Notes: generated from the sequence alone by a model not told the origin. A stretch of DNA of 56,218 nucleotides from Clostridia bacterium (GCA_017547545.1 JAFYPJ010000038.1:1-56218), one strand, 5' to 3'; shown: positions 11,393 through 36,090, numbered from the stretch's first letter. Translations and numbers: made by a program.

Positions 11393-11414
11393 AAGGGACC
11401 AAAAGGTCCCTTTT
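11391..11414. terminator. Bidirectional terminator
   Basis: aaaagggacc-aaaa-ggtccctttt palindrome between convergent genes. Confidence 0.75.
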
Positions 11415-11415
11415 A

Positions 11416-12908: not shown

Positions 12909-14273
12909 CTACCTCTTATCAAAAATCTCTGTTAAAGTATTTATACGCTTTCCCGTTGTAAGAACTATAACATGGTCACCTGCATAAATTACATCATCAC
13001 CTGTGGGAATAATAGACTTTCTTCCCCTGATGATGCCTGCAACAAGCATATTTCTTTTAATAGAAAGTTCTTTTAACGGTATATCAAGCTCTTCAAAGCT
13101 ATCTCTTACAATAAATTCAAGGGCCTCCGCTTTATCGTCCATAAGGGTATAAAGCGTTTCCATTTCACTACCCAAAGAATTTTCAAGAGCTCTTGCATAA
13201 CCTGCAAGCTGGTCTGAAATTATTTTACAGGGAGAGATTATAGTGTCAAGTCCCAAATTCTCTGCCATGGAAGCCAATTCAGGACGGTTTACCTTAGTTA
13301 TTACCTGAGGTACCTTTTGAGATTGGGCAAATATTGAAACAAGTATATTTTGCTCGTCCATACCGGTTAAAGCGATAAATGCATCAACAGAACGCAAACC
13401 CTCCTCTAAAAGTATCTCCTGAGAGGCACCGTCGCCCTCAATAATAGTTGCGCCGGGAAGGAATTCCGCAATAGCTTTACAACGCTTGTTATCCTTTTCT
13501 ATTATAGTAACATTTGCACCTATACTCAAAAGCTTCTGGGCAAGGTAATAGGAGGTTTTCCCTGCACCTATGATCATAACATTTTTCGCCTGCTTTTTCA
13601 TTATACCAAGGGCACGGAAAAGCTTTGCACCTTCCGCGGTGGACGCTGCAATACCTATATGATCCCCCGCATTCAGTATGAAATTACCGTCGGGAATATA
13701 AACCTCATCCCCTCTGCGTACCGCACATACAAGAAACTTTTGATTATATTTTTTTCTAAGCTCCCAAAGTGAGCAATTTACAATAGGAGAGTCGTTTTTC
13801 AATTTTAATTCGATCATTTCATAGTTTCCGCGTGCAAAGGATTCTATTTTCATTGCACCGGGAAGCTTTATGAGGTTGAAAAGCTCACGGGAAGCCATCT
13901 TTTCCGGATTTATAGAAGAAGAAAGCTCTAAATGCGAACGCATAAAGGAAAGGCTCTTATCATTATATTCGGGATTTCTTATTCTTGCAAGGGTATGGCT
14001 TGCCCCCATACGCTTTGCAAGGAAACAAGCAAGCATATTCAATTCATCAGAATCTGTTACTGCTGCAAACAGCTCCGCATCTTCCACTCCCGCCTCGGTA
14101 AGCACATCGCTGTCTGCTCCGTTACCGCAAACACCGATTACATCATATATATTTGTAATTTCAGTAATTATGGCAGGATCGTTATCTATAGCCACAGCCT
14201 CGTGCCCCTCATCCACAAGGTTTGAGAGAATAGCTGTTCCTATTTTTCCGCATCCAACAATTATAATCTTCAT
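12909..14273 (-). CDS. trkA: Trk system potassium uptake protein TrkA (two RCK/NAD-binding modules)
   Basis: MKIIIVGCGKIGT and VMIIGAGKTSYYLA Rossmann motifs. Start moved to the internal ATG at 14273. Confidence 0.9.
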   Translation of the reverse strand: MKIIIVGCGKIGTAILSNLVDEGHEAVAIDNDPAIITEITNIYDVIGVCGNGADSDVLTEAGVEDAELFAAVTDSDELNMLACFLAKRMGASHTLARIRNPEYNDKSLSFMRSHLELSSSINPEKMASRELFNLIKLPGAMKIESFARGNYEMIELKLKNDSPIVNCSLWELRKKYNQKFLVCAVRRGDEVYIPDGNFILNAGDHIGIAASTAEGAKLFRALGIMKKQAKNVMIIGAGKTSYYLAQKLLSIGANVTIIEKDNKRCKAIAEFLPGATIIEGDGASQEILLEEGLRSVDAFIALTGMDEQNILVSIFAQSQKVPQVITKVNRPELASMAENLGLDTIISPCKIISDQLAGYARALENSLGSEMETLYTLMDDKAEALEFIVRDSFEELDIPLKELSIKRNMLVAGIIRGRKSIIPTGDDVIYAGDHVIVLTTGKRINTLTEIFDKR

Positions 14274-14343
14274 AGCTCGCTCCGAATCAGTATAATTTAC
14301 ATCATTATACATCACACTTTTATAAAAAGCAATAGTTAATAAC

Positions 14344-14376
14344 AAAAACGAGAAAGCAAAATGCTTTCTCGTTTTT
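14344..14376. terminator. Terminator closing the 7-gene cluster
   Basis: aaaaacgagaaagca-aaa-tgctttctcgttttt. Confidence 0.75.
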
Positions 14377-14389
14377 ATTATTAAATTTA

Positions 14390-15427
14390 TTAACCTGTAA
14401 TACCGGAACGTTCGATACCCTCTACCATGTATCTCTGACAGAAGAGATAGATTATAATAAGAGGAGTAATAATAAGCATTGCCGCTGCATTGCTTACCGC
14501 TGCCTGGAACATTGAGGGTGCCAGGGTTATATCGAGAGAGTTCGGCATGGTTACTATACTGGGCATGAGTGTGGTATTTACAGAGGGGAAGAAGAGCTTT
14601 GTATAGAAGTTATCCGTCCACTGCCATGAGAATGAGAACAGGAATATTGTTATCAACATAGGAACTGACAGAGGAATAATGATCTTGAAGAAGGTCTTAA
14701 AGGGACCGTAACCGTCAAGATATGCGGATTCTTCAAGCTCGTCGGGAACGCCCTTGAAATACTGACGCATCATGAAGATATACAAACCGTTCTTAAATCC
14801 AAGACCTGTTAATGAAAGCAGAGCCAAGGGGAAGAATGTATTCGTCATATTTATGGTAGGCATGGGTATGAACCCAAGAGCATTGAACATACCAAGCAAA
14901 TCAAAATATGTGAATCTCATAAACATTGAGAACTGCAAGGTCTTATGGGGAACGATCATTGTAAGAATAACAATAGCAAATAAAATCTTGTTACCCTTAA
15001 ACTTGAACTTTGCAAAACCATAACCGATTATCGAAGAGATAAAGGTCTGTATAAATGCACACATAAGTGAAAGCAATACGGTGTTAAACAAAGCTCCAAA
15101 ATAGTTATTATCCTTGATAACTGCTATATATGTATCAAGTGTAGGATATCTCGGCACTAATTTTACCGTTACATCACCAAAGTCCTGCGCACTCATAAAT
15201 GAGGAAGAGATCTTTGTGAAGAAAGGCATAAGAATTACATAGGAAATACCTAAAAGAAGGAGGAATCTTGCAATCTTCCATACGGTACCCGTAACGAAAT
15301 TCATGCTGAGATACTTTAATTTAAGACGCTTCCACAGGGAAGTTCTTTCAAAATCAACTTTGATCTTGTTTTTTGTTTCCTTGGTTACCTTGGGGGCCAC
15401 AGGAATACTATTTTTTACATTATCCAT
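14390..15427 (-). CDS. Carbohydrate ABC transporter permease (MalG-like), pair 2
   Basis: 6-TM binding-protein-dependent permease with EAA-like loop EESAYLDGYGPFKTFFKIIIP. RBS taaggaggg. Confidence 0.9.
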   Translation of the reverse strand: MDNVKNSIPVAPKVTKETKNKIKVDFERTSLWKRLKLKYLSMNFVTGTVWKIARFLLLLGISYVILMPFFTKISSSFMSAQDFGDVTVKLVPRYPTLDTYIAVIKDNNYFGALFNTVLLSLMCAFIQTFISSIIGYGFAKFKFKGNKILFAIVILTMIVPHKTLQFSMFMRFTYFDLLGMFNALGFIPMPTINMTNTFFPLALLSLTGLGFKNGLYIFMMRQYFKGVPDELEESAYLDGYGPFKTFFKIIIPLSVPMLITIFLFSFSWQWTDNFYTKLFFPSVNTTLMPSIVTMPNSLDITLAPSMFQAAVSNAAAMLIITPLIIIYLFCQRYMVEGIERSGITG

Positions 15428-15439
15428 TTTCAGCCCTCC

Positions 15440-16438
15440 TTAATCTCTTCTCTGGTAGAATATGAATGCCGACAGAGCTGCTGTTACAATGCCGATGATT
15501 CCTATAACTATAAGGAAGTACATCCATGCCATTGCAGATGAAAGCTCACGGCCTCCGTTACCGGTGTAAACACCTGAAATGTATGACATAACAGGGTTTG
15601 TTGCTGAGGTCAACGCGTCTATAACTGTATATATTGCATTAACCAGAATCATCGGGCTTACCATGGGGATAGTTATCTTCCAGAATGCTTCCCATGCAGA
15701 TGCACCGTCTATATTACAGGATTCATAGATCGCAGGAGATATAGACTGTAAGCCTGCAAGGAAGATAAGCATCTGTACACCCGAACGGTTGATAATATCA
15801 TAAATGTTATTCATGATATTAACAACATACTGTGTAAGCTCTGTACCAACCTTCATGGAGTCAAACATCCATTGTATATCCGTCATGGATACCACTGCAT
15901 TTACCGTGTCGGTTCCGGCACCGGTATTGATGGAGGATGTATTATCGGACATGTACTGAGTAAGAGCGTTTGTTGAGTCAATTTCATCAATAAGACCGGT
16001 ACAAAGAATAACCGGAATAAAGAATATTGCTCTGAATGCTGCACGGCCAAGCATCTTCTGATTAAGAAGAACCGCCATGAACAAAGAGAAAATTACGATT
16101 GCGGGGATATCAAAGATAAGATCTTTGATACCCTGCGTAAGCGTTTGTACGAAATAAACATCTACGGTGAGAGCTTCATTATAATTTGCAAATCCTACAA
16201 AATCATATTGGAAACCGCCGCCGGGCAATGTTTTTACCGCACCAAAGCTGAATTTGATAGAGTCTAATATAACAGGACCGTAAATGAAGAATAAGCCCAA
16301 TATGAAGGGGAGGAGGAACAACCATCCGCTTCTTGCCTTACGGGCATCAAGTGATGCACGGCTTGACTTTTTCTTTACAGGAGCGGCTTTCTTCTTTACA
16401 GGTGCCGGTTTATTGGCTGTTTTTACTGCATTATTCAT
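15440..16438 (-). CDS. Sugar ABC transporter permease (MalF-like), pair 2
   Basis: Lys-rich N-terminus, 6 TM helices, EAA-like loop YESCNIDGASAWEAFWKITIP. RBS aaggaggg. Confidence 0.9.
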   Translation of the reverse strand: MNNAVKTANKPAPVKKKAAPVKKKSSRASLDARKARSGWLFLLPFILGLFFIYGPVILDSIKFSFGAVKTLPGGGFQYDFVGFANYNEALTVDVYFVQTLTQGIKDLIFDIPAIVIFSLFMAVLLNQKMLGRAAFRAIFFIPVILCTGLIDEIDSTNALTQYMSDNTSSINTGAGTDTVNAVVSMTDIQWMFDSMKVGTELTQYVVNIMNNIYDIINRSGVQMLIFLAGLQSISPAIYESCNIDGASAWEAFWKITIPMVSPMILVNAIYTVIDALTSATNPVMSYISGVYTGNGGRELSSAMAWMYFLIVIGIIGIVTAALSAFIFYQRRD

Positions 16439-16450
16439 TTCAAGCCCTCC

Positions 16451-19400
16451 TTATTTCTTAATATAACTTACAGGTTCGATCACATCACCGTCAACTTCAA
16501 CAGCAAATCTGTTGTAGTTGAGAACGAACACTGTACCGTCTGAGTAAGTTATGCGTACGATAGTACCGTCTGTTACTCTGTGAACATTAGCTTCTTCAGC
16601 AGTTTCGTCTGCAGCTTCTTCGGTAACTGTTTCTTCAACAGTTTCTTCAACAGTTTCTTCTGCAACTGCTTCTTCAACATCTTCAGCCGCTTCAACAACT
16701 CTTACACCTTCAAGGAATTCATGGTTTACAATCGTGCAATTCTGAACATCCTTAAGAAGTGCATTAAGCTCGTTGTAGATCTCAACAAGGTCATCCTTCC
16801 AGATCTTATAGTCTACAGAGTAGTACTTGGAAAGGCTACTGTCATCTTTAAGCATTTCGGTATTATCGTATGAAAGTGTAAAGTAAGGCATAGCACCGTT
16901 CTCAATCATCTTGAGAACTTCGTAGTTCATGTCGCTTGCCATATTTGTAGGTGATCCTGCATATTCAATACAACCGTGGAGAACCATTCCTATGAAAGGA
17001 ACACTTCTGAAGGAGTTTGAATGACGGCTGGAGTCAAGCGCCATATTAAGGATAGTGTCAGCATACTTCCATGTAAAGGAGTTACCGCCGTTAACCATTA
17101 CGCTGTCATAATCCTTGCTTGCCTGTTCAAGAAGATCCACGATAAGATCTTTTCCGTCTTCACGGCTGTATGTATCATCCTCGTCAAAGTCGGAGTTAAG
17201 ATCTGTACCTAATGTTCCAAGAGAAATACCGCTCTTACCAAGCTTGGTAAGGTCTTCGGTTACATCACCGTAAAGATCTGCAAATACCGAAGGAGATATA
17301 CAGATAAGACCTGTTGTAATGGTCTGCTGGAAGGAGGAGTAATACTCTCTCTTCTGCTGATATCTGTTATCTATTGTTCTTGCACCGTCCTTTTTAAGAC
17401 TGAAGCCATCAAAAGAACCGTCCTTTGTTAAATAACTGAGATCAAAATCAGGGTATACGGTAATATTATTTTTCTTTGCAAATTCCACAAAATCGGTATA
17501 GCCTTCATCACCGCCAACCTCTTTCTGGAACTTAACCTTGGTAGGTACACTTGAAATCATACCACCGTTGGCAAAACCTGTAAGCTTGTAGTTAATATTT
17601 GAGATTCCTTCTTCCTTGAGTTCGTTATACATCTCTTTAAGATCTTCAAAGGAAGTGAGGGCTTTGGTTACTGTTACAGGCACGGAAAGGAATGTTCCGT
17701 CTGTGTCCATTGTACCAAAGGATTCGATATAAAGAGGAATATCCTCTTTGTTGCTTTCAATAAATGAGAGAACTTCATTCTTAACAAGATAATCCTGATA
17801 TGCTTTTGCCATACCTACATAGCTTGTTTCATAATACTCATCCTCAGAAAGACCTGCATTTGCAGCCATTTTTTCATCAGAAAGCATTATGATACGGATT
17901 CCGTAGCTTCCGGTATATCTACGCTCTGCGGTGATAGTCCATACGGTATCGTCACCAACAGATACTGCATCCGAAAGATTATAGGAGTCATTTGCTCTGA
18001 GGTAGAATTCAGGATAAGCTGAATTGTACTTGTGGGTAGAACCGCCGTGTGCGGTTTTAATGGTAGCAAGGGAGTCACCTTCTTCGATGATTGCAAAGAA
18101 ACCGCGATCCTGTGCTGTTGCCGGAATTACTACTGCTTCTTCCTCTGCTGCATCCTCGTTTGCTTCATCCTTTGCTTCATCTGCTGTTTCCTCGGTTGCT
18201 TCTTCGGCTTTTTCTTCGGCAGGTTCTTCTGCTGCTTCTTCAACCTCGGCAGCTTCCTCACCCTCGGTTGCTTCTTCGGCTTTTTCTTCGGCAGGTTCTT
18301 CTGTTGCTTCTTCAACCTCGGCAGCTTCCTCACCCTCGGTTGCTTCTTCGCCCTCTGCTGCTTCACCTTCAGCTTCTTCTTCGCCTTCGGTTACAGGAAC
18401 AAAGTTTTCAACCAAACCGTATACGGGTAAGCGCATATCTTCAAGATTTGTTGCTACAATTTCGTGGTAAGAGAAGTCCGTTCCGTATACATCTCCGGAC
18501 ATACCAACGATAACACTCTCTGCATCCATCTGCTTGAAATCAAGCAATGCTCCGCTTCCGTCGGGAACGAATACATAACCGTTGTTTACACCGTTTCCTG
18601 CACCAAAATAAGGAAGCACTCTGATATAATTTAAGGTATACTTATCTTCATCAAAGCGTACACCGTTTGCAGGAAGCTTTATCTGAAGACCGCTTTCATC
18701 AAGATAATACTCAAGAGCCATCTTGAAAAGCGGAGGAGCTTCAGCTGTTGAGATATAGTTTGTTATCTGATGGTCTTCTTCCATCTTAGCAAAGGTATAT
18801 TTGGGGCAATATTTCTTGATAATACTCTCAATATCCTTCTTTTCACGACGCTCTGCAGTTGTATCGAACACATAAACCGCCATTTTCTCGGTTATAGGAT
18901 AGTTCTTATACATGTCTGCTCTTTCGGCATCGGTAAGCTCTTCATTTTCAGGATCCTGCAATACATAGAAGTAGGAAAGCTTGTTGAAGAGATACTTGGG
19001 AATATTGTGTTCTTCGGCTGCGGCAACGATAAGCTCTTCAAATCTGGACTTTTCAATTACCATGGGAACAAGATATCTTGTTTCTTCTTCACCGATAGAA
19101 TATTCCACACGGAGACCGCTTTTAAGGTTTTTAACCTTGATCTGTCCCTTTTGAGTGGACCAAGCAAAGCTGTTATAAGGAGTAGCCGTACCTGTGTTGT
19201 CCTTAAACTCTATCATAAGCTGGGACATAAGCTCACCCTTGATATCCTGAGAAGCTGTGCTTGTTGCGATATCGTAGGGATTAGTAAATACTGTCTGGCC
19301 TGTAACAGTATTGTGCAATGCTACTTCACCGGAAAAGCTGTCGCACCAGAGCTCATAACCGTATGCAGATACCATGAGTTCCATTGTTGCAAGCTTCTCT

Positions 19401-19762
19401 TCAGGAGAATTATACTTTGTTACAAGATAAGAATTTGCTTTCTTAATATTAGGGTCGGTGGTTTCTTCCTCTTCAGATTCTTCGTCTGAATCGGTATCTT
19501 CACCTGTGGTTTCTTCACCGTCTGCAGCTTCTTCACCATCTGCAGCTTCTTCGCCGTCTGCAGCTTCTTCGCCATCTGCAACCTCAGCCTCGCCTTCGGC
19601 ATCTTCGTCTGAGGTTTCTTCATCGTCAGTAGCTGCAAGAAGTGTATCAACTGCTGTTTCGTCATCTTCGGGTGCTGCACTTACAACTACCGCAAAGGTT
19701 GAGAAAAGCATCATCACAGCAAGAAGCAGTGATAAGAATTTAATTGAAGTTTTGTTATTCAT
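16451..19762 (-). CDS. Large secreted protein of unknown function (DUF5696-like from memory) with three acidic repeat inserts
   Basis: Signal peptide (...FAVVVSA/APEDD), no other TM helix. Conserved-looking blocks YFGAGNGVNNGYVFVPDGSGALLDF and GFFAIIEEGDSL. RBS gaaggagg. Confidence 0.85.
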   Translation of the reverse strand: MNNKTSIKFLSLLLAVMMLFSTFAVVVSAAPEDDETAVDTLLAATDDEETSDEDAEGEAEVADGEEAADGEEAADGEEAADGEETTGEDTDSDEESEEEETTDPNIKKANSYLVTKYNSPEEKLATMELMVSAYGYELWCDSFSGEVALHNTVTGQTVFTNPYDIATSTASQDIKGELMSQLMIEFKDNTGTATPYNSFAWSTQKGQIKVKNLKSGLRVEYSIGEEETRYLVPMVIEKSRFEELIVAAAEEHNIPKYLFNKLSYFYVLQDPENEELTDAERADMYKNYPITEKMAVYVFDTTAERREKKDIESIIKKYCPKYTFAKMEEDHQITNYISTAEAPPLFKMALEYYLDESGLQIKLPANGVRFDEDKYTLNYIRVLPYFGAGNGVNNGYVFVPDGSGALLDFKQMDAESVIVGMSGDVYGTDFSYHEIVATNLEDMRLPVYGLVENFVPVTEGEEEAEGEAAEGEEATEGEEAAEVEEATEEPAEEKAEEATEGEEAAEVEEAAEEPAEEKAEEATEETADEAKDEANEDAAEEEAVVIPATAQDRGFFAIIEEGDSLATIKTAHGGSTHKYNSAYPEFYLRANDSYNLSDAVSVGDDTVWTITAERRYTGSYGIRIIMLSDEKMAANAGLSEDEYYETSYVGMAKAYQDYLVKNEVLSFIESNKEDIPLYIESFGTMDTDGTFLSVPVTVTKALTSFEDLKEMYNELKEEGISNINYKLTGFANGGMISSVPTKVKFQKEVGGDEGYTDFVEFAKKNNITVYPDFDLSYLTKDGSFDGFSLKKDGARTIDNRYQQKREYYSSFQQTITTGLICISPSVFADLYGDVTEDLTKLGKSGISLGTLGTDLNSDFDEDDTYSREDGKDLIVDLLEQASKDYDSVMVNGGNSFTWKYADTILNMALDSSRHSNSFRSVPFIGMVLHGCIEYAGSPTNMASDMNYEVLKMIENGAMPYFTLSYDNTEMLKDDSSLSKYYSVDYKIWKDDLVEIYNELNALLKDVQNCTIVNHEFLEGVRVVEAAEDVEEAVAEETVEETVEETVTEEAADETAEEANVHRVTDGTIVRITYSDGTVFVLNYNRFAVEVDGDVIEPVSYIKK
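16627..16662 (-). repeat. 12-bp in-frame tandem repeat (x3) encoding VEET repeats
   Basis: ctgtttcttcaa, cagtttcttcaa, cagtttcttctg. Confidence 0.8.
18191..18352 (-). repeat. 72-bp in-frame tandem repeat, two near-identical copies plus a partial third
   Basis: ctcggttgcttcttcggctttttcttcggcaggttcttctg[c/t]tgcttcttcaacctcggcagcttcctcacc recurs at 18191, 18263 and 18335. It encodes EEATEGEEAAEVEEA(T/A)EEPAEEKA. Confidence 0.9.
19511..19582 (-). repeat. 18-bp in-frame tandem repeat (~4 copies) encoding GEEAAD
   Basis: tctgcagcttcttc(a/g)cc(g/a) iterated. Confidence 0.85.
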
Positions 19763-19780
19763 TTCATCTGCCTCCTTCTG

Positions 19781-21931
19781 TTACATTCTGTAGGACAATT
19801 CCGTAATAATACTTGATACGAAACCAACGATCTTCTGGAGAAGTCCTGTAAATAATAATCCGATAAACATTATAAATGCCATACCAACAATGGTCATAAG
19901 CGATGTGATAACATTTTTAAGAAGAGAATATCCGTGAGTTACCATCATACCGCAAACAACCAAAAGTGCAACCCAAGCCCAACCTATAGTAACAAGCAAG
20001 GATACAACGCCCGCTTCATTCAAAGAGAAGAAGTGAGTACATATTACGGAAGGAATTACAAAGAAGGGTAAGGGAGCAAGTGAATAACCAACTGCTGTAT
20101 AAATATCCTTAAAGCTTCCTTCACCGTCCATAAGTGTGGTAAGACACCAGTTAGCTGTTACCCAAAGGAATACAGGCATAAGTATTGAAACTGCCTGAAC
20201 AAATATTGAACTTGTTGCTCCTGTGGGATTGAAGAGATATGCCTGGCCAACCGCCTGATATGTAAAGGAGATAACAGCCAATATAACCCAGAAGGTTGCA
20301 CCGCGAACAGAACCGCGTTTTTCATGCTTAAGGTCCCAGAATCCGTCGAAGGGATGTCCAAAGAGATGGAACGCATAGAGAACTTCTTCATGCATTTTAC
20401 GCTTGCCCTGCTTCAGGATACCTGCCTTGTTAACCTTGGCAGCCCACTTAAAGAGCCATGACAAACCGAGAACAACTAATATTGCAACTACGGGAATAAG
20501 AAGAATTACCTTCTGAGCAACTTCTTTTCTGTATTCCTTAAATGCATTTGAATAGTTTGTAGTATCATAAGCAGACTTAAAGTATTCCATACTTTCCTGC
20601 CACTTACCGCTACGGTAAAGAGACTTACCGATACCAACATATGCCGCATCAAAGTTACCGTTTCTCTGGAGGATCTTTTCCCAGTCTTCAACGGCCTTAT
20701 CATAGTTTCTTTCATTATCGTTATGAAGTGCGTCAATAAGAATATCACCGTACTCTGTTCTTTCGTATACAGTTATTGAAAGCTCTGTTTTATCAAGAAT
20801 AAGAAGCTTTGAACCCTGGTATACAAGACCTTCCGCCATCTTAAGGTTACCGAGCATTTCGCCCTTATCACCAAAGATGTGAAGCAAACGGCCGTAAGAA
20901 TCATAGGTATAAACCTTGGAACGCTTTTCGTCGATAATAGACCATGTGCCTTCATCACCAAGCGCCACGTCAATTATCTTGGAAGCACCGATGATATCAC
21001 TGGAGGATTTAGAGCTCCAGATAACATTTACTTCACCGCCGGGACCAAAGAATCCACCGCGAACCATAACATCATCACCTGAAGAATTGAGCTTTTTGAC
21101 AGGAGAATAATCGCTGGATTTACCCTCGATAGCTGCCTGCTGAGCAGATTCTTCGATAGAGGAAGAAGTAACATAAACAAAGCCTTCGTCGTCTATTGTG
21201 ATATTATTATACTCTGTAGGAACATAGCTTTGAGACTGTGCTCTCTGCTCTGCTGTCATAAATGACTGCCAAAGAATATCCGCCGCATCAACAGAAACCT
21301 TCTGTGCACCGAGAAAGCTCTGGAATTCGCCTTCTTTGTTAAGAACGATTACACCCATGTAGGTTGTGGAGGATACAACATAAAGGTTTCCTACATCATC
21401 TACCGCCAATGCAACCGGCTTATAAATAGCATCCGATTCCATAACCTCGGAGCTGGGCTCCTGGATCACGCTGTGGAAGGGGAACATTACATCACCCTCA
21501 GGGGTACGGCTGAATAATACAATTCGGCTGTTTTCGGTATCTGCTACATAAATAAAATCATCTGTAACATACATACCGCTGGGCGCACTGAGTGAATCGG
21601 GTACACCCTGATCGTTAATGAACTCATTACCGAAATGAGTTACATATTTATAATACTTGTCAAGCATGTAGATACAGTTCTTACCGTTATCTACAATATA
21701 AACATTTTCATTCTCGTCTACAACGATGTCTGAAGGATTAACAAGGTTTTCGGGCAAGCCCATTGCTTCCCACTTTACCTCTCTGTCCGGTGTGTATGCA
21801 TCAGGAGAGTCAACCGGCACACCTGCAATTGAGTAGGTGTAGGAGGTATATGCATCTGCGAAGGATGCAACCCCGCCGAGTAAGGTAAACAGACAAAGTG
21901 AGAGAGCTATTAAAGAAAGATATCTTTTCAT
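19781..21931 (-). CDS. Fusion protein: secreted NHL-repeat beta-propeller, TPR-like segment, TM helix and C-terminal Yip1-type polytopic domain
   Basis: Signal peptide. NHL-like blades (VYIVDNGKNCIYMLDK, IYVADTENSRIVLFS, LYVVSSTTYMGVIVLNKEG, VYVTSSS...). TPR-like NYDKAVEDWEKILQRNGNFDAAYVGIGKSLYRSGKWQESMEYF. A TM helix, then HPFDGFWDLKHEKRGS followed by 5 TM helices. Confidence 0.85.
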   Translation of the reverse strand: MKRYLSLIALSLCLFTLLGGVASFADAYTSYTYSIAGVPVDSPDAYTPDREVKWEAMGLPENLVNPSDIVVDENENVYIVDNGKNCIYMLDKYYKYVTHFGNEFINDQGVPDSLSAPSGMYVTDDFIYVADTENSRIVLFSRTPEGDVMFPFHSVIQEPSSEVMESDAIYKPVALAVDDVGNLYVVSSTTYMGVIVLNKEGEFQSFLGAQKVSVDAADILWQSFMTAEQRAQSQSYVPTEYNNITIDDEGFVYVTSSSIEESAQQAAIEGKSSDYSPVKKLNSSGDDVMVRGGFFGPGGEVNVIWSSKSSSDIIGASKIIDVALGDEGTWSIIDEKRSKVYTYDSYGRLLHIFGDKGEMLGNLKMAEGLVYQGSKLLILDKTELSITVYERTEYGDILIDALHNDNERNYDKAVEDWEKILQRNGNFDAAYVGIGKSLYRSGKWQESMEYFKSAYDTTNYSNAFKEYRKEVAQKVILLIPVVAILVVLGLSWLFKWAAKVNKAGILKQGKRKMHEEVLYAFHLFGHPFDGFWDLKHEKRGSVRGATFWVILAVISFTYQAVGQAYLFNPTGATSSIFVQAVSILMPVFLWVTANWCLTTLMDGEGSFKDIYTAVGYSLAPLPFFVIPSVICTHFFSLNEAGVVSLLVTIGWAWVALLVVCGMMVTHGYSLLKNVITSLMTIVGMAFIMFIGLLFTGLLQKIVGFVSSIITELSYRM

Positions 21932-21942
21932 GCTTTTCCTCC

Positions 21943-22827
21943 TTAGTCTTTCATACCCGACGATGCCATAGTTTCAACTATCTGGCTCTGGTTTACAACG
22001 AATACTATGATCGGCACGCTCATAAGAAGTACCGAACCTGCTGTTGCCGCACCAACATTAGTACCTGCGGCACCTGTTATCTGTACGATAGCAGCATTAA
22101 ATGTTTTAAGCTGTTCACTCCATACATAAACGGAAGCACCTGCATTCCATACAGACTGGAAGGTTGTAACGATAAGTGTAAGCCATGCAGGCTTAACCAA
22201 AGGCATTGCTATCTTCCAATATATATAGAATTCTTTTGCACCGTCAATACGGGCAGCCTCTATCATCTCATCCGAAATACCGTCATCAATAAAGTTCTTC
22301 ATAAGGTAAAGACCAAGGGTTGATGCCCATACGGGAAGAATCGAAATAGAGTAGGTATTAAGCATACCGAGATAACAGTAAATAATAAAGTTGTATGTAC
22401 CTGTAATGGTAGAACCGATCATAAGAGAGTAAACGATTATATTGTTGATAACCTTATAACCGGGCATACGAACCTTAGAAAGTGAATATGCCGTCATTGA
22501 ACCTAAAAGCAAACATCCTAAGGTAGAAGCTACCGAAATGAATACGGTATTAAAGATATACCTTGAAATAGGAACCCATGTTTGGTTCATGTTTGTAAAA
22601 AGGTCAATAAAGTTCTTCATGGTGGGCTTGATAACATACATCTTGGGAGGTGTTATGGAAAGCTCACCAAGAGGCTTGAATGCGGTTATTACCGTATAAT
22701 ACATAGGAAGGAACATCAATGCACCGAGTATTACAAGCATTACTGTAATAACTGTATCGCCCCCGGCAGAACGGTTAAGTACGACCTTATGTTTTCTGAC
22801 ACGCAATCTTTTAACTTTTTTTGCCAT
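21943..22827 (-). CDS. Carbohydrate ABC transporter permease (MalG-like), pair 1
   Basis: 6 TM helices, EAA loop EAARIDGAKEFYIYWKIAMP. Confidence 0.9.
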   Translation of the reverse strand: MAKKVKRLRVRKHKVVLNRSAGGDTVITVMLVILGALMFLPMYYTVITAFKPLGELSITPPKMYVIKPTMKNFIDLFTNMNQTWVPISRYIFNTVFISVASTLGCLLLGSMTAYSLSKVRMPGYKVINNIIVYSLMIGSTITGTYNFIIYCYLGMLNTYSISILPVWASTLGLYLMKNFIDDGISDEMIEAARIDGAKEFYIYWKIAMPLVKPAWLTLIVTTFQSVWNAGASVYVWSEQLKTFNAAIVQITGAAGTNVGAATAGSVLLMSVPIIVFVVNQSQIVETMASSGMKD

Positions 22828-22828
22828 A

Positions 22829-23803
22829 CTACTGTCCCACCTTTGCTAACATTTTATTTACAAGACGGTTCGAGGTGAACATGAGGATAAACATGAACAA
22901 CGCGATCGCCGATGCATAACCGAACTCAAAACGGGTACTCATGTACTCGGTAAGATGATGGTTAAGAGTCCATGCACAATAGTTTACTGAGGGTGTTCCG
23001 CAGAGAAGTGTTACGATAGCACCAAAGCCAAAAGCGTTGGTAATAGACATAACCGCACCGAACATAAGCATGGATTTCATATTGGGAAGGGTAACAAACC
23101 AAACCTCCTGCCAACGGTTCTTAATACCGTCAACCGCACCTGCTTCATACTGAGCACGGTCAACACCCTGAAGTCCCGCGATAAAGGAAAGGAAGGAAAT
23201 ACCCAAGCTGGTCCAGATAGAAATAAATATCATCAAAGGAACGATGTAGGTTTCATTCTGGAAAAAGAGGATCGGTTCGCTTATAAGGCCTAACTTCATG
23301 AGCCAGCCGTTTGCAAATCCGTAGATATCTCCTCTGAATACAAGTAAGAAAATGGTGTGCGCACCGCCGGAAATACCGGGTGCATAAAATATAAATGTAA
23401 CCAATGCTCTTGCTTTAGGTGAAAGCTCGTTGATAAACCAAGCAAGAATAAAGCTTAAGATAAAGGACGCAGGTCCCGTTGTAAGAGCAAAGATCATTGT
23501 GTTTTTGAATGCGGTGATGAACAAATCGTCATCAAGAAACATTCTGATAAAATTATCAAATCCAACCCATTTAGGGAACTGGAACATATTAAAAGATGTA
23601 AAGCTGAGTAAGAGTGAGAGTATAACGGGTATAACAGTAAAAACAAGGAACATTATCATAAAGGGTGTTATCATAAGATAGCCCGCTCTTGTTCTTTTCA
23701 TCTCACTTCTTATGTACTGCCATCTTGTCATATCTTTTTTGGAAACCGGCTGTTTGCTCTTTTTTTCCGGTTTGGTACTCTTTTTTACAGCAGTATCTGA
23801 CAT
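22829..23803 (-). CDS. Sugar ABC transporter permease (MalF-like), pair 1
   Basis: Lys-rich N-terminus, 6 TM helices, EAA loop YEAGAVDGIKNRWQEVWFVTLP. Confidence 0.9.
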   Translation of the reverse strand: MSDTAVKKSTKPEKKSKQPVSKKDMTRWQYIRSEMKRTRAGYLMITPFMIMFLVFTVIPVILSLLLSFTSFNMFQFPKWVGFDNFIRMFLDDDLFITAFKNTMIFALTTGPASFILSFILAWFINELSPKARALVTFIFYAPGISGGAHTIFLLVFRGDIYGFANGWLMKLGLISEPILFFQNETYIVPLMIFISIWTSLGISFLSFIAGLQGVDRAQYEAGAVDGIKNRWQEVWFVTLPNMKSMLMFGAVMSITNAFGFGAIVTLLCGTPSVNYCAWTLNHHLTEYMSTRFEFGYASAIALFMFILMFTSNRLVNKMLAKVGQ

Positions 23804-23866
23804 GAGTAATTCTCCTTTTCAATATTATTTTTTAAAGGGTTAACTTTTGGGGCAGAGGGTGCGAAA

Positions 23867-26800
23867 TTACTTCGCATCCTCGTCATAAGTTACCGGCCAA
23901 AAGTCCAAACCGAATTCTTCACGCTTACGCGCAATTTCCTTATTTATATATGTAACCTGTTCAAGCATTGCATCAGCAGGGTTGTCACCTCTGTTGTATG
24001 CATTAAGGAATGCAAAGGATACATACTGAGTTAAGATGTATGAACCGGGATATTCGGGTACGGTTTCAAGACTTGAAAGAATACCGCGAACCGCCGCACG
24101 TTCTTCATCTGTCCACTTCTGTGAAAGAAGTGCTTTAACATTTGCGGTTGAATACTTGGTTGTAGGAAGTGAAGTTGCAATAGTTTCTCTTGCCTGACGC
24201 ATCTGAGAATCAGAACCGCAGTACCACTTCATATATGTCCATATAGTATCCTTCTTTTCCTGGCTGCGGCCTCTGTCTTTAGGCATGATCATTGCCATTG
24301 TGTTTGCAACCGCAGTATGATTTACAGTACCGTCCTCCTGAACTGTACCGATAGCTGGTGCAAGCTGCCACAAGCCACGGAGTTCATAGTATGTCATAAG
24401 GGTATTGTAAATTGTAATACCGTCTTCAGAAACCATTATCGGAATTTCACCTGTTCTGAAACGGGTAATATCGTATGCAACGGGAGCACTGTACTTCTGG
24501 AACATTTCGCAGAGAGTTTTAAATGCGGAAAGTGATTCGGTAGAATCAAGATTTGTTCTGTAACCGTTGTCACGGAAGAGATCTCCGCCTTCTTGCTGAT
24601 AGATAAAGAGCTGTGCGCCGGGAAGTGCTGTTGAAAGACCGATGTCAAAATTGTTATTCAAAAGCGCGGGCATTGAGGAAAGCAGCTCTGTCCAGCTTTC
24701 GGGCATACCGATACCTAATTCATGGAGTACATCAACACGGTAGAATGCCATAGGCATAATAAGTGTTGTAGGCAAGCCGTATGTATTGTATTCTTCTTTA
24801 CCTGTTTTTTCATTAAGTGCCGTCATAGATACTTTCTTATACCAGGGATTTTCCTCAAGGGGAACATCCTTTCCTTCTTCAACAGCGGCATAAGAATATT
24901 CATCCATTATATCTTTAAAGCCCGGCATGTCTTGTACAGGTTCAATAGCAGTTCGCATACCGAAGGTTATTGTGTTAACCGTATCAAGGAAGGAAATATC
25001 CGGTCCTATACCTGCCAGGATCGCTTCCTGCAAGCCGGCGGTAATAACCTTAATATATAATGCAGTTCCTTCACCGGGACAACCTTCTGCCGAGAAGTAG
25101 TTATCAACAATATATCTTGTGATAAGCATTGATTCACGGTCTGCAATCGCCCACATTTCAATAACATCGTCTTCGTTGCCCTTACTGTCTTCGGTTACTG
25201 CGTCACCTGAGAAACCGATGGTAGTATAGTCCATTGTGAAACTTGCTACAAATGCTTTGCATTCAAACCATACCTTCTGGAATGCATTTGATACATCCTG
25301 AGGCAATTCTTCGTTTACATCACCTATAACGAAATAGTCAAGCTTAACGGGCTGACCCAATGCTGCATATAACCAGTCACTGAGTGCAATTATATAGTTT
25401 TTGAACGTAAGGAAATTAGGTGCAATCTGATATTCATCCTTTGCCATATCCTCAAAAAGTTCTGCTATGGTAAGAAGGGTATTTGTCTGGTCACCGTCGG
25501 CGCCTGTCATTTCAACGATATCTTCCTGAATCTCATAAAGCTCGTTTGCCGCTTCACCGATAGATACGATGCAATCGGGAACAAGTCTTCTAAAGCCGTA
25601 ATCACGGTATGAGTCGGGAACGGGACCGGTAATCATAAGCATTCTCTGATAAACATCATTAAGCTCGTCTATCATCTGCTCTATCTGATATACATATTTT
25701 TCCATTTCACCGAGAACTATTTCTATTTCAACGGTATTAACACCCTCTTCAAGATAGAAAAGGAATTCCTGTTCACCGTTGTTCGCATAAGCAGACTGGA
25801 ACTCGGTATTATACATAAATCTTAAATGGCTTGCCTCACGGAACTGAACCTCACCGTTTATCTTAACTCTTCTTGAAGAGAACATACCGATAAGGGAGTT
25901 CTGACGGAAACGGAAAGACATAGAGTAGAGACCTGTTTCTTTTACCTCTACCTCGTATTTCATCCAGTTGTTGTTACCGCCGTTGTCAAGAATATTATAT
26001 TTGATAACCGCAGGATCCTGGGGCTCAGTGATGGAGGAGGTTCTGTCATTACCGGGGAATACATTCTGAACAGATACATATTCGGGGTTTTCAGCCTGAA
26101 CCTTTATAGGCTCATGATCTTCAACTTCCTTAACACCGTTTGCTTTCATTTCCTTGAGCCATTCGTCATATGTAGGCTCTTCTTCATGTCTGTAGAATTC
26201 GATCTTGCTGATAACCATGTGTTCACGGTTAGAAACAAGAGTTAAGGTATGCCAACCTTCGTCAAGATAGAATTCAAAAGGATCAATATCATAACCCAAC
26301 CAGTCACGAACATAGTAGGTCTGCCACATGGGAACTTCCCAACGCCTCGGTCTTGTATCGTTACCGTTTTTATCTTCGGGGAAGGTGTAGCAGTCATATT
26401 CTTTGTCTATTATTCTGCCTGTTTCTTCATCTACGACATATTTGTCTGTATCATAGCCCATTTCTTCAAGAGTCTTACCTTCTTCGATTGTACGGTATTC
26501 GTAAGACCAGCAACGGGGGAAGTAAAGATATCTTGCTTCCGAGAAGGGAAGCTTACCGTCGATGTAAAGCATACGCTCGATGGTTGTGGATATCTCTGCA
26601 TCTTCAAGCTCTTCATCAGAATCCGCCTGAGGATTGGATGTGTAGGTAATACGCATAGCGTACATGCCTGTTTTTTCAACATTGAAACGGAATACAGTCT
26701 CACCGGTATCACCTGTGCTTAAAACAGTTCCGGTAACCTCATCCTCATAGCTGAAATGACCTGCAACAACACCCTTGGTATCCTTAACCTCGGATGCATC

Positions 26801-27310
26801 CTTGAGTTCATAGCTGGCAGTAGTGTAAACAATTTCTTCTTTCTGATCTTCTTCTTCCTTCTTCGCATCTTCGGAAGCAGGATCTTCTTCAAGATCAGCA
26901 GTTTCACTGTTGTCGGCATTAGCTTCGGCATTTTCTGCCTCTTCCTGAGCCTCCTGCTCTGCTATAAGGTCTTCTGCCTGTTCTGCTGAATAAACGGTTT
27001 TACCGTCTGCAGATACAGGTTCGTCTTCTGTAACGAGATCCTCATATGTGATGACAATATTGGCATCCTCGGGAGCCTTCTTGGCATCAGCATGCTCGTC
27101 GGTATAATCTATATAAGAGTCTACACCGATAAGCTTTTCCAATTGCACCGCATCGTAATGATAGAGGGATGCAAGAGGATCAACCGTTACTTCCTCTTTC
27201 TGGGAAGAGTCATCTTCTGCGGCATACACCAACACGGACGTTGACAGGACGCCGAAGAGCATAAGCACCGCCATGGAAAATGACAGGATTTTTTTAATCC
27301 TTACGTTCAT
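23867..27310 (-). CDS. Giant extracellular solute-binding protein: signal peptide, acidic linker, two CBM-like beta-sandwich modules and a family-1 SBP domain
   Basis: Start placed at MNVRIKKILSF... (ATG 27310, RBS aaggaggaaac). CBM6/35-like blocks (VFRFNVEKTGMYAMRITY...LYIDGK; KYEVEVKETGLYSMSFRFRQ...VKINGE). The C-terminal ~550 aa look like an SBP (VIEMWAI, YGLPTTLIMPMAFYRVDVLHELGI, WQLAPAIG). Confidence 0.85.
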   Translation of the reverse strand: MNVRIKKILSFSMAVLMLFGVLSTSVLVYAAEDDSSQKEEVTVDPLASLYHYDAVQLEKLIGVDSYIDYTDEHADAKKAPEDANIVITYEDLVTEDEPVSADGKTVYSAEQAEDLIAEQEAQEEAENAEANADNSETADLEEDPASEDAKKEEEDQKEEIVYTTASYELKDASEVKDTKGVVAGHFSYEDEVTGTVLSTGDTGETVFRFNVEKTGMYAMRITYTSNPQADSDEELEDAEISTTIERMLYIDGKLPFSEARYLYFPRCWSYEYRTIEEGKTLEEMGYDTDKYVVDEETGRIIDKEYDCYTFPEDKNGNDTRPRRWEVPMWQTYYVRDWLGYDIDPFEFYLDEGWHTLTLVSNREHMVISKIEFYRHEEEPTYDEWLKEMKANGVKEVEDHEPIKVQAENPEYVSVQNVFPGNDRTSSITEPQDPAVIKYNILDNGGNNNWMKYEVEVKETGLYSMSFRFRQNSLIGMFSSRRVKINGEVQFREASHLRFMYNTEFQSAYANNGEQEFLFYLEEGVNTVEIEIVLGEMEKYVYQIEQMIDELNDVYQRMLMITGPVPDSYRDYGFRRLVPDCIVSIGEAANELYEIQEDIVEMTGADGDQTNTLLTIAELFEDMAKDEYQIAPNFLTFKNYIIALSDWLYAALGQPVKLDYFVIGDVNEELPQDVSNAFQKVWFECKAFVASFTMDYTTIGFSGDAVTEDSKGNEDDVIEMWAIADRESMLITRYIVDNYFSAEGCPGEGTALYIKVITAGLQEAILAGIGPDISFLDTVNTITFGMRTAIEPVQDMPGFKDIMDEYSYAAVEEGKDVPLEENPWYKKVSMTALNEKTGKEEYNTYGLPTTLIMPMAFYRVDVLHELGIGMPESWTELLSSMPALLNNNFDIGLSTALPGAQLFIYQQEGGDLFRDNGYRTNLDSTESLSAFKTLCEMFQKYSAPVAYDITRFRTGEIPIMVSEDGITIYNTLMTYYELRGLWQLAPAIGTVQEDGTVNHTAVANTMAMIMPKDRGRSQEKKDTIWTYMKWYCGSDSQMRQARETIATSLPTTKYSTANVKALLSQKWTDEERAAVRGILSSLETVPEYPGSYILTQYVSFAFLNAYNRGDNPADAMLEQVTYINKEIARKREEFGLDFWPVTYDEDAK

Positions 27311-27569
27311 TTTTGTTTCCTCCTTAAGGGTTAAATGATTTTTCGCAAATCCAAAAAAGGGCAACAATACCCCAACAGGCATAACTATCCCAAAAGAATA
27401 TACCCGTTGGTTTTCGCACAAAACCATGCCGCATCCTCTTTCCAAAGCTCCGTTTTGCATGCTTTTATCCGGTTCAGAATACGGTTGCCGTTACCCATGA
27501 ACCAAAGCATTTCACACGGTTTTTGTGCAGAGAAAAGGCTTGGTTTTCCCTTTTATTTTCATGTTTATT

Positions 27570-27598
27570 ATAATACCACAGCCACCGATAAATGTCAA
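27570..27598 (-). promoter_or_regulatory. Sigma-A-type promoter for the 7-gene cluster
   Basis: Reverse strand reads TTGACA-17 nt-TATTAT. This implies a ~250-nt untranslated leader before ATG 27310. Confidence 0.55.
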
Positions 27599-27729
27599 GT
27601 GCAGAGTTTTAATGTCGCCTTATGTCATAAGGGTTTACGGGAAATTTTATTAAGTAATTTTTAATTTTACCAAGGGCTTTTTTTTCAATGAATTTCCATT
27701 TGTTTCTTTCAAGTCAAAAACATGCTTCG

Positions 27730-28031: not shown

Positions 28032-28610
28032 ATGAAAAACTCCTTTTACCCTATGATTTTCCGCCAGCGTTATATACGCCGCTGGGGACTCATGAGAAAT
28101 ATGACAGAAGAAACGCTCAGCGAACATTCCTATGAGGTTGCGGTTCTTGCCCACGCACTATGCACCGTTGGGAACAGATATTTCAACAAAAACTATGACA
28201 CGGGCAAAGCGGTCAGCTACGCACTTTTTCATGATGCGCAGGAGGTTTATACCGGTGATATGCCAACCCCTGCAAAATATTATAATGAAAGCATGCGCCG
28301 CAATTATGCCGAAATTGAGGATAATGCTACAAAAAAGTTACTTTCAATGCTTCCCGAAGAGTTGCAGCCGGACTACAGCGAGCTGCTCTGCCAGAATGAC
28401 AGCGAGCTTCATCTTATAGTAAAAGCAGCAGACAAATTAAGTGCATATATCAAATGTATAGAAGAACTCAAATGCAACAACAATGAATTTAAAAGTGCCG
28501 CAAAAGCTACCCTTAGATCACTCAAGGAAAACCCTCTGCCTGAGCTTCATTATTTTATGGAGAATTTCCTGCCCGCATTTGAAAGCGATCTTGACGAATT
28601 GCAGATGTAA
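28032..28610 (+). CDS. yfbR: HD-domain 5'-deoxynucleotidase (YfbR-like)
   Basis: RQRYIRRWGLMRN...ETLSEHSYEVAVLAHAL...LFHDAQEVYTGDMPTP. Confidence 0.8.
   Translation: MKNSFYPMIFRQRYIRRWGLMRNMTEETLSEHSYEVAVLAHALCTVGNRYFNKNYDTGKAVSYALFHDAQEVYTGDMPTPAKYYNESMRRNYAEIEDNATKKLLSMLPEELQPDYSELLCQNDSELHLIVKAADKLSAYIKCIEELKCNNNEFKSAAKATLRSLKENPLPELHYFMENFLPAFESDLDELQM

Positions 28611-33129: not shown

Positions 33130-36090
<2,961 letters not shown>

Follow-up and report, generated by a model that had tools for sequence, protein, structure and literature searches.

A conserved seven-gene operon of Firmicutes combining two ABC permease pairs, a giant binding protein, an NHL–Yip1 membrane protein and a DUF5696 protein with a predicted glycosidase fold

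The window, by which we mean the whole analyzed stretch of 56,218 nt, carries on its minus strand a block of seven tightly packed genes (14390–27310; Table 1), with gaps of 63, 1, 11, 18, 12 and 12 nt leading from the gene for a giant binding protein (SBP), via a permease pair (F1G1), an NHL-TPR-Yip1 gene and a DUF5696 gene, to a second permease pair (F2G2). The true start of the SBP gene is the ATG at 27310, which is preceded by AAGGAGG and gives a product of 1147 aa, the length named in the original prediction. That prediction had described seven closely spaced ORFs on one strand, bounded by a single promoter and a single terminator and lacking a convincing internal terminator; the ORFs, their gaps, the promoter score and the folding z-score bear this out, and the terminator-like hairpins within the block are weak and not commoner than in shuffled sequences (10 found against 13.3 expected).

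Table 1. Features of the operon in the window
Feature	Coordinates	Strand	Remarks
Intrinsic terminator closing the operon	14337..14383	-	fold -27.6 kcal/mol, z -10.5
Permease G2	14390..15427	-	345 aa; EAA loop
Permease F2	15440..16438	-	332 aa; EAA loop
DUF5696 protein	16451..19762	-	1103 aa, secreted or anchored; Pfam, AF2, Foldseek
NHL-TPR-Yip1 protein	19781..21931	-	716 aa; Pfam and hydropathy
Permease G1	21943..22827	-	294 aa; MalG/UgpE-like, EAA loop
Permease F1	22829..23803	-	324 aa; MalF/UgpA-like, EAA loop
SBP gene	23867..27310	-	1147 aa; ORF list extends to 27460
Structured 5' leader	27311..27563	-	~253 nt; hairpin and U-run at 27373-27358
Sigma-70-type promoter	27570..27598	-	TTGACA-17-TATTAT, extended -10 TG; 11/12 matches
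Palindrome CCTTATGACATAAGG	27618..27632	-	15 bp, immediately precedes the -35 box; candidate operator

This arrangement recurs widely. The order SBP-F1-G1-NHL/Yip1-DUF5696-F2-G2, on the same strand and with tight spacing, is found in all 66 complete loci, i.e., those whose contig spans the whole block, each from a different species; in all of these the Yip1 and DUF5696 genes travel with two permease pairs, the question of gene neighborhood raised at the outset. The remaining 20 loci are partial or split: 18 lack genes at one or both block ends only, where the available sequence stops, and in two, one gene appears as a pair of neighboring ORFs. No rearranged or inserted genes were seen in any of them. 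Further afield, positional orthologues of all seven genes lie in the same order, at ~27% identity, on pNP243 of Butyrivibrio fibrisolvens and on a plasmid of Paenibacillus cellulosilyticus, and here F1 pairs with F1 and F2 with F2. The gene set and order have been retained together in both Clostridia and Bacilli, and the seven genes constitute one genuine operon or module, which agrees with the earlier claim of a single unit with a non-standard CUT1 layout. The notion that unrelated transport operons or genes came to be adjacent by chance is hardly credible: it could appeal to the two complete translocator pairs and to the small hairpin that sits in the 63-nt gap behind the SBP gene, but it is contradicted by the synteny, with identical order and spacing in every complete locus, even between Firmicutes classes, where identity falls to 27%, and by the single strong promoter and single strong terminator in the window.

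The 1147-aa protein itself has no match in Pfam or NCBIfam; since its homologues carry SBP_bac_1/SBP_bac_8 and its predicted fold conforms to that of an SBP, we take it, as had been proposed, to be one. Its parts comprise a signal/anchor helix, an acidic linker, two β-sandwiches (~165–375 and 400–532), a helical bundle (534–652) and a CUT1-type SBP fold (~655–1135), the C-terminal 500 residues being predicted to adopt the CUT1 oligosaccharide-binding fold. Foldseek searches with the AF2 model (pLDDT 84, pTM 0.83) recover oligosaccharide SBPs with TM scores of 0.65–0.76 (9xf5, E 6e-17; 3uor, TM 0.76). The two N-terminal modules formerly called CBM-like do appear as two predicted β-sandwiches, but their similarity to CBM35/Golvesin_C is sub-threshold only. 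Both the SBP and the DUF5696 protein bear AXA-type signal peptides, with neither a lipobox nor a sortase signal in either; hence, their retention at the surface is a conjecture.

The permeases have Pfam and NCBIfam hits. All four are matched by the Pfam model BPD_transp_1, with F1 scoring below the cut-off (20.9 against 26.4 bits); F1 also aligns to models for UgpA and PotB, and EAA loops, the elements that couple to an ATPase, can be read in all four sequences. F2 is 25% identical to F1 and G2 21% identical to G1, and F2 has an extracytoplasmic insertion of ~100 aa, located between residues ~150 and ~225. The pairs F1G1 and F2G2 are anciently diverged. The reported lack of a nucleotide-binding subunit stands: no MsmX/MalK-type ATPase is encoded in the 56-kb window, whose only ABC_tran genes lie beside an amino-acid-type SBP and permease (39868–40662) and beside an FtsX permease (54191–54838). 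The companion idea of a shared MsmX-type ATPase encoded elsewhere is plausible. A ugpC/MsmX-type gene directly upstream heads the orthologous Paenibacillus operon, its product being 51% identical to the ATPase near locus L001, and an MsmX/UgpC-type gene lies ~1.6 kb upstream in two close relatives (L001 and L010); such genes occur within the flanks (up to 10 kb on each side) in only two of ~80 species.

In its MalF/MalG-type permeases with EAA loops, its SBP_bac_1-fold receptor, the absence of an ATPase gene from the operon and the MsmX/UgpC-type ATPase beside the Paenibacillus version, the system resembles the orphan-MsmX/MsmK CUT1 importers of Firmicutes. It differs from them in having two anciently diverged permease pairs with one recognizable SBP; in the size of that SBP (~1000–1150 aa), with its two extra β-sandwiches, helical bundle and signal peptide without a lipobox; and in the NHL-Yip1 and DUF5696 genes embedded between the pairs. 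The service of two pores by one SBP would be unprecedented and may simply be wrong.

The DUF5696 protein matches its namesake Pfam family (PF18952) with E 8.8e-153 (510.5 bits against a cut-off of 25.6), a family with 5658 representatives at 50% identity. Its AF2 model (pLDDT 77, ~90 in the folded parts) consists of an N-terminal β-sandwich, a TIM barrel and a C-terminal β-sandwich, interspersed with acidic low-complexity linkers (23–100, 461–545 and 1037–1057) that are encoded by tandem DNA repeats. This three-domain fold is like that of GH129 (NagBb), the GH129-like DagB/ZGAL_3152 and GH101 (EngBF, SpGH101), with Foldseek E-values from 1e-27 to 1e-12 (5opq, 1.3e-27; 5wzp, 3e-18; GH101, ~1e-12) and target TM scores of 0.68–0.72 over whole targets. 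On the strength of the model, the protein is predicted to have the GH129/GH101 retaining α-glycosidase fold. Some GH129/GH101 enzymes are extracellular, and the disaccharide freed by the GH101 enzyme EngBF is subsequently imported by an ABC transporter, the same logic as we propose below for this operon. Unlike those enzymes, DUF5696 has no detectable sequence similarity to them, contains long acidic low-complexity inserts and always lies within a transporter operon. The structural alignments show 9–11% identity, a profile search against PDB sequences found no match, and eight DUF5696 members gave no hit to the GH101 or GH129 Pfam models at E up to 10; therefore, DUF5696 is not a member of either family by sequence, and at most a new, distantly related one. 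The Pfam and Foldseek check once suggested for this protein yielded a fold match but no sequence-level membership of a known enzyme family.

Six residues (D785, D858, R867, N894, H929 and E954) are invariant, and the carboxylates and polar residues of the barrel region hold down to 27% identity. The domain plan of DagB matches the DUF5696 model, and catalytic residues differ even between NagBb and DagB (PMC5698469). The catalytic Asp nucleophile and Glu acid/base are D486/E517 in DagB and D435/E478 in NagBb; the candidates in DUF5696 are D858, D785 and E954, and the choice of D858 as the nucleophile is a guess. The original prediction left the protein as either a glycan-processing enzyme or a second receptor, and because of the GH129/GH101-like fold and the barrel carboxylates invariant to 27% identity, the enzyme is favored and the receptor disfavored. 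A non-enzymatic GH-fold receptor that replaces the SBP for the second permease pair would nevertheless account for the order DUF5696-F2-G2, which mimics SBP-F-G, and for the single recognizable SBP beside two pores in most loci, and the catalytic residues of DUF5696 remain candidates only. We consider such a receptor unlikely: the invariant D785, D858, E954, R867 and H929 in the barrel resemble an active site, two ordinary SBP genes lie directly behind F2G2 in Butyrivibrio, and we know of no ABC importer whose receptor has a TIM-barrel GH fold.

The 716-aa protein combines a signal peptide, an extracellular NHL/SBBP β-propeller, TPRs, a TM helix (475–493), a near-invariant cytoplasmic motif HPFDGFWDLKHEKRGSVRG (526–544) and a five-TM Yip1 domain. 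Pfam detects Yip1 (PF04893) at 2.8e-13 (50.5 bits against a cut-off of 28.6) along with NHL/SBBP and TPR, and hydropathy shows five hydrophobic segments behind residue 545. Permeases aside, it is the best conserved component of the operon (56–76% identity, 697–756 aa, 63% mean column identity). In B. fibrisolvens NHL and Yip1 are two genes, split exactly after TM1; the occurrence of both fused and split forms shows that the two parts work together. The cytoplasmic motif HPFDGFWDLKHEKRGS is near-invariant, Butyrivibrio included. In other bacterial proteins, such as PknD, an extracellular NHL propeller functions as a sensor domain; together with this motif and the lack of a dedicated regulator in the window, this lends something to the idea that the protein senses or regulates transporter activity across the membrane rather than being a passive scaffold, its propeller detecting glycan and its invariant cytoplasmic loop gating the ATPase or relaying a signal to expression. 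We deem this improbable: Pfam finds no kinase, DNA-binding or cyclase domain in the protein that could serve as an output, and YknW of Bacillus subtilis, the one studied bacterial Yip1 protein, is an accessory to an ABC transporter that modulates complex assembly (PMC4887032). By analogy, YknW offers a precedent for a Yip1 protein as an ABC-transporter accessory. The likeness to YknWXYZ lies in a Yip1-family membrane protein encoded together with an ABC transporter, here as a strict co-occurrence of the genes; the differences are that YknYZ belongs to the MacB-type exporters and YknW lacks a large extracellular domain, whereas here the transporters are type I importers and Yip1 is fused to an NHL propeller and TPRs.

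Taken together, we find it somewhat more probable than its converse that the operon encodes a cell-surface machine for the capture, cleavage and import of a glycan, which is probably α-linked. Briefly, the SBP would hold the glycan by its two N-terminal β-sandwiches and pass an oligosaccharide to F1G1, while the GH129-like DUF5696 enzyme would trim or cleave the glycan extracellularly, its product entering via F2G2. The latter might share its SBP with F1G1 or rely on others encoded elsewhere, as the two ordinary SBP genes that follow F2G2 in Butyrivibrio suggest. A shared MsmX-type ATPase dimer would power both pores. The NHL-TPR-Yip1 protein would act as a hub that keeps both signal-peptide-bearing soluble proteins beside the pores, a role that we assign to it because it is the sole stably membrane-embedded extracytoplasmic component and the best conserved non-permease one; it might also signal to the cytoplasmic side via the invariant HPFDGFWDLKHEKRGS loop. 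The strong promoter would drive expression and the long structured leader would probably tune it.

The leader of the window has an MFE of -78.7 kcal/mol (z -3.97), its DNA is conserved in L001, L008 and L010 (nhmmer E 2e-16 to 4e-19), and it has no Rfam match; across the leaders of 40 orthologous operons the mean z is -2.95. Of 61 upstream regions (60 loci and the window), 42 have an equivalent near-consensus promoter, placed 57–346 nt before the SBP gene. The palindrome CCTTATGACATAAGG is kept in the window and in the same three related genomes, and is a candidate for the operator of a regulator whose gene lies elsewhere. Both the leader and this operator-like palindrome may carry regulation. 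No regulator adjoins the block within the window, as first reported, but the statement does not extend to the Butyrivibrio version, beside which lie a histidine kinase gene, assigned to the His_kinase family (PF06580), and, by the record annotation, a response regulator gene. There, a GH43 gene also overlaps the start of the SBP gene. Elsewhere the flanks of the loci are unrelated and of a housekeeping kind (NifS/NifU, AlaRS, alanine racemase, YfbR); no CAZyme, regulator or catabolic gene recurs in them, and no cytoplasmic glycosidase, kinase or regulator lies nearby in the window and most relatives. This absence is unusual for a nutrient-utilization locus and counts against our preferred explanation. 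The window additionally encodes several SLH-domain surface proteins.

These settings bear on an alternative that departs from the preferred explanation in substrate and physiological role only, namely that the same machine recycles or remodels envelope glycan, importing the cell's own or its neighbors' surface polysaccharide (secondary cell-wall polymer, capsule or EPS) rather than a dietary one. The housekeeping flanks, the frequency of the near-consensus promoter, the SLH-domain proteins and the presence of the module alike in rumen, hindgut and biogas-reactor genomes speak for it; its link in B. fibrisolvens to GH43, the two-gene kinase and response regulator set and further SBPs is the usual nutrient-utilization setting, and the structured leaders suggest regulated rather than constitutive expression. 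We regard it as possible, though the less likely account. The module also invites comparison with Gram-positive polysaccharide utilization loci (gpPULs), which share an ABC importer with a GH-like protein and, in the case of Butyrivibrio, GH43 and the histidine kinase/response regulator; unlike them, the window and most relatives lack a regulator, further CAZymes, a cytoplasmic GH or catabolic genes. Moreover, PULs are usually mosaic, whereas the composition of this module is fixed across hundreds of species.

A bolder version, which we consider doubtful, is that the module forms a Gram-positive surface complex of a new kind, in which the Yip1-propeller hub physically couples the extracellular GH129-like enzyme, as a new GH family, and the CBM-bearing receptor to two different ABC translocators, channeling the cleavage and uptake of two products; this would be a functional Firmicutes counterpart of the Bacteroidetes SusCD 'utilisome' controlled by an undescribed structured leader RNA. 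If the proposed functions are true, DUF5696 (~5700 representatives at 50% identity) would gain a fold and a likely α-glycosidase-like activity class, bacterial Yip1 proteins would gain a second transporter context besides YknW, and the notion of 'one SBP, one permease pair' would be challenged by an ABC importer that has two distinct pores and an enzyme embedded in it. We found no publication on this operon, and likewise no paper mentioning DUF5696. In a collection of species-representative genomes at least 583 stretches contain a relative; the module, with its fixed order and well-conserved proteins, is present in at least several hundred Firmicutes species of the gut, rumen and digesters, almost all uncultured. 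Two carriers, Butyrivibrio fibrisolvens D1 and Paenibacillus cellulosilyticus KACC 14175, are in culture, which makes the hypotheses directly testable.

The seven genes of the block constitute a conserved operon. Metagenome-assembled genomes of Clostridia hold abundant homologues of the DUF5696 protein. When each species was represented by a single genome, at least 583 stretches encoding a relative were recovered, and three loci picked at 44-53% identity presented the identical seven-gene order between unrelated flanks. Upon placing the window's seven proteins on the ORFs of 86 loci, we found that all 66 loci covering the block show the same succession on one strand: the binding protein (SBP), a MalF/MalG-like permease pair (F1G1), the NHL-TPR-Yip1 membrane protein, the DUF5696 protein and a second permease pair (F2G2). 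Of the remaining 20, 18 lack nothing but genes at one or both edges of the block, where their contig or the stretch retrieved runs out, and in two a single gene appears as a pair of neighbouring ORFs; no rearrangement or inserted gene was seen in any of the 86 mapped loci. The same picture emerged with the binding protein or the Yip1 protein as the starting query. This synteny rules out the alternative that unrelated operons are merely adjacent and answers the neighbourhood question raised in the original prediction, as Yip1 and DUF5696 travel with two permease pairs in 66 of 66 complete loci. Clustering of 1085 flanking ORFs yielded only lineage-specific housekeeping neighbours (NifS, NifU, AlaRS and ROK kinase) and no recurrent regulator, CAZyme or ATPase beside the module. 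In the window, a divergent gene for a YfbR-like 5'-deoxynucleotidase adjoins the promoter; it is also the module's upstream neighbour in two related loci (L001 and L092), representing residual local synteny without an obvious functional link.

The layout of the block accords with a single transcription unit as originally read: the ORFs are separated by gaps of merely 63, 1, 11, 18, 12 and 12 nt, one promoter and one strong terminator bracket them (see the table), and terminator-like hairpins within the block are weak and do not outnumber those of shuffled sequence. Translation of the first gene begins at ATG 27310, preceded by AAGGAGG, which bears out the predicted 1147-aa product; an in-frame extension to ATG 27460, present in the ORF list, was rejected, both for want of a ribosome-binding site and on account of indels in that stretch, between the window and its relatives, that are not multiples of three. 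The GC content of the block (0.40-0.43) is that of its surroundings. Downstream, genes for TrkA and then TrkH, on the same strand, form a separate unit; the listed TrkA start falls within the operon's terminator stem, and the true start codon probably lies more downstream, since TrkA_N is first matched from about residue 26.

Features of the window by coordinate
Feature	Coordinates	Strand	Details
Palindrome CCTTATGACATAAGG	27618-27632		15 bp, near-perfect; abuts the -35 box
Promoter TTGACA-17-TATTAT	27598-27570	minus	score 11/12; extended -10 TG
5' leader	27311-27563	minus	about 253 nt
Seven-gene block	14390-27310	minus	SBP-F1-G1-NHL/Yip1-DUF5696-F2-G2
NHL-TPR-Yip1 gene	19781-21931	minus	716 aa
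DUF5696 gene	16451-19762	minus	1103 aa
Tandem repeats in DUF5696 gene	16589-16684, 18173-18379, 19511-19580		encode linkers
Terminator	14383-14337	minus	-27.6 kcal/mol; z -10.5
TrkA gene	12909-14345	minus	listed start TTG (14345)
MicX match	11382-11529		25 bits (gathering score 75); E 0.063
YfbR-like gene	28032-28610		divergent
Tandem ThuA-like genes	31493-32245, 32325-33077	plus	followed by GH2
GH2 beta-galactosidase gene	33148-36090	plus	LacZ-like; 980 aa
SLH-domain protein genes	1019-2992, 3062-4471, 44068-46590
SpoIIP and germination protease genes	46601-48642

On the transport side, all four permeases carry the BPD_transp_1 domain (Pfam) and an EAA loop, establishing two ATPase-coupled type I importer pores in the module. 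F1 and F2 are 25% identical and G1 and G2 21%, as against about 57% for each permease between species; hence, the second pair is indeed diverged, as had been proposed, and judged by their sequences F1G1 and F2G2 are two old, distinct pores. A recent duplication is ruled out by these values, each permease being closest to its own positional orthologue. The module has one receptor, established by structure prediction as of the CUT1 fold: the SBP model (pLDDT 84) begins with a signal/anchor helix and an acidic linker, continues with two beta-sandwiches and a helical bundle, and closes with a domain of about 480 residues at the C-terminus that resembles CUT1 oligosaccharide-binding proteins (cycloisomaltooligosaccharide-binding protein, E 6e-17; MalE, TM 0.76). 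Thus, of the binding protein with two CBM-like modules originally envisaged, the SBP part stands as a predicted fold, whereas the CBM35/Golvesin_C similarity of the beta-sandwiches stays below threshold. In line with the sugar-type ATPase reported missing near the block, no MalK/MsmX-type ATPase is encoded within the window, whose two ABC_tran genes are parts of an amino-acid system and of a MacB/FtsX system, respectively; among relatives, the flanking DNA retrieved (up to 10 kb per side) holds an MsmX-type ATPase gene in two close ones only. The ATPase is probably supplied from outside the module, the usual arrangement in the MsmX-dependent CUT1 systems of Firmicutes.

The 1103-aa protein carries the DUF5696 domain (Pfam, E 8.8e-153), of a family with 5658 representatives at 50% identity. 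An AlphaFold2 model from 51 input sequences (pLDDT about 90 in folded parts, pTM 0.76) has three folded parts with disordered acidic linkers between them: a beta-sandwich region at the N-terminus, a (beta/alpha)8 barrel and a beta-sandwich at the C-terminus. Foldseek searches of the PDB matched it to the GH129-like 3,6-anhydro-D-galactosidase DagB (5opq; E 1.3e-27, target TM 0.68), the alpha-N-acetylgalactosaminidase NagBb of GH129 (5wzp; E 3e-18, target TM 0.71) and GH101 endo-alpha-N-acetylgalactosaminidases (E about 1e-12, target TM 0.27-0.35), with GH36, GH31 and GH13 following at weaker E and lower TM. The published domain plan of DagB is that of our model (PMC5698469). The substrates of these fold relatives are alpha-GalNAc and alpha-anhydrogalactose. 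The module thus includes one extracytoplasmic protein with a predicted GH129/GH101 fold. No sequence-level link to known GH families was found, so it is not a GH129 or GH101 member by sequence. In an alignment including two cultured homologues only 27% identical, D785, D858, R867, N894, H929 and E954 are invariant, as are the PDGSG and YGxD motifs of the N-domain. The invariant residues look like an active site, with D858, which sits in the LGSDLNSDF loop following barrel strand four, as the putative nucleophile. In DagB the nucleophile is D486, and in NagBb it is D435. The earlier idea of a glycan-processing enzyme thus gains a predicted fold and an invariant residue set, but not family membership; alternatively, the protein might be a non-catalytic receptor serving F2G2. 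The E/A/T/G-rich linkers are encoded by tandem DNA repeats (e.g., 72 bp x 2.2 at 98% identity; 18 bp x 3.9), and lengths of 760 to 2545 aa across the family indicate that linkers and extensions evolve fast.

The fourth component is one propeller-Yip1 membrane protein (Yip1, NHL, SBBP and TPR matches in Pfam). It is the best conserved of the extracytoplasmic components (56-76% identity, 697-756 aa), with a near-invariant loop between TM1 and the Yip1 helices predicted to be cytoplasmic by the positive-inside rule. Cultured bacteria illuminate its composition: tblastn against annotated plasmids recovered two records about 27% identical to the DUF5696 barrel. The operon of Paenibacillus cellulosilyticus KACC 14175, locus tags HUB94_RS00490-RS00525, consists of ugpC (an MsmX-type ATPase), 986-aa SBP, two permeases, YIP1 family protein, DUF5696 and two permeases, which supports the external supply of the ATPase. 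In Butyrivibrio fibrisolvens D1 pNP243 (L090; WAA20_RS20510-RS20550) the order is GH43, 977-aa SBP, two permeases, NHL protein, YIP1 protein, DUF5696, two permeases and two further SBPs, with a divergent histidine kinase (His_kinase family, PF06580) and response regulator beside it. Best-hit mapping gave positional orthology for every gene in both carriers, F1 with F1 and F2 with F2; the module is ancient. In B. fibrisolvens the NHL propeller/TPR/TM1 and Yip1 parts are two overlapping genes (8859-10954 of L090), the NHL protein ending right after TM1 and the separate Yip1 protein opening with HPFDGFWDLKFEKRGS; therefore, the window's fusion joins two cooperating partners.

With regard to expression, a near-consensus extended -10 promoter lies 57-346 nt 5' of the SBP gene in 42 of 61 upstream regions (the window and 60 related loci). 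The window's leader (median in relatives about 210 nt) is conserved in the DNA of three genomes (L001, L008 and L010) whose proteins are only 53-65% identical; it contains a hairpin with a U-run at 27373-27358, and its fold is much better than those of shuffled sequences (z -3.97). Only four leaders align. Across the 40 leaders that reach 100 nt or more (the window, those three and 36 other loci), the mean z is -2.95, with 72% below -2, and many contain terminator-like hairpin and U-run elements, which suggests control by attenuation or structured RNA. The leader has no Rfam match and may act as an attenuator or cis-regulatory RNA of a kind not described before; the only Rfam match in the region, to the Vibrio sRNA MicX, is almost certainly chance. 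The palindrome upstream of the promoter may be an operator for a regulator encoded elsewhere; it is kept in the three closest related genomes (L001, L008 and L010) only and is ruled out as a general feature of the module.

Briefly, we advance the following mechanism: (i) the SBP would capture an alpha-linked glycan; (ii) the GH-like DUF5696 protein would cleave it at the cell surface; (iii) the products would enter via both pores; and (iv) the NHL-TPR-Yip1 protein would hold both soluble proteins at the pores. The signal peptides of the SBP and the DUF5696 protein are both conserved and of the AXA type; neither protein showed a lipobox or a sortase motif. The extracellular GH101 EngBF of bifidobacteria, with its disaccharide ABC importer, is an analogue of such cleavage followed by import. 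As for the fourth step, the bacterial Yip1 protein YknW modulates ABC transporter assembly (PMC4887032); alternatively, the Yip1 protein might be a sensor. The original observation is confirmed, and its reading as polymeric-glycan capture, processing and import gains partial support and is made more precise. Alternatively, the same machine might serve to recycle glycans of the envelope and not to take up dietary ones, a reading favoured by the strong promoters, the housekeeping character of the flanks and the missing regulator; carriers inhabit rumen, gut and biogas reactors. An anti-phage role was rejected, as PADLOC returned nothing beyond a weak TPR match.

The ABC-importer-based glycan locus is a known kind of system; what is new is the fixed set of two different pores, a giant receptor, a predicted GH129-like protein and a propeller-Yip1 protein. 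Within the searchable library, our literature search found no papers mentioning DUF5696 or PF18952, nothing relevant on Yip1 or NHL with an ABC transporter, SBP or glycoside hydrolase, and no paper on this gene combination.

Among the other genes of the window, the ThuA-ThuA-GH2 arrangement, 4-9 kb from the operon, was not seen beside the module in other genomes. Three surface proteins have SLH domains, and one of them also carries BspA-type LRR and Listeria-Bacteroides repeats; they indicate an S-layer or SLH-anchoring envelope in this spore-former, whose SpoIIP and germination protease genes also lie in the window.
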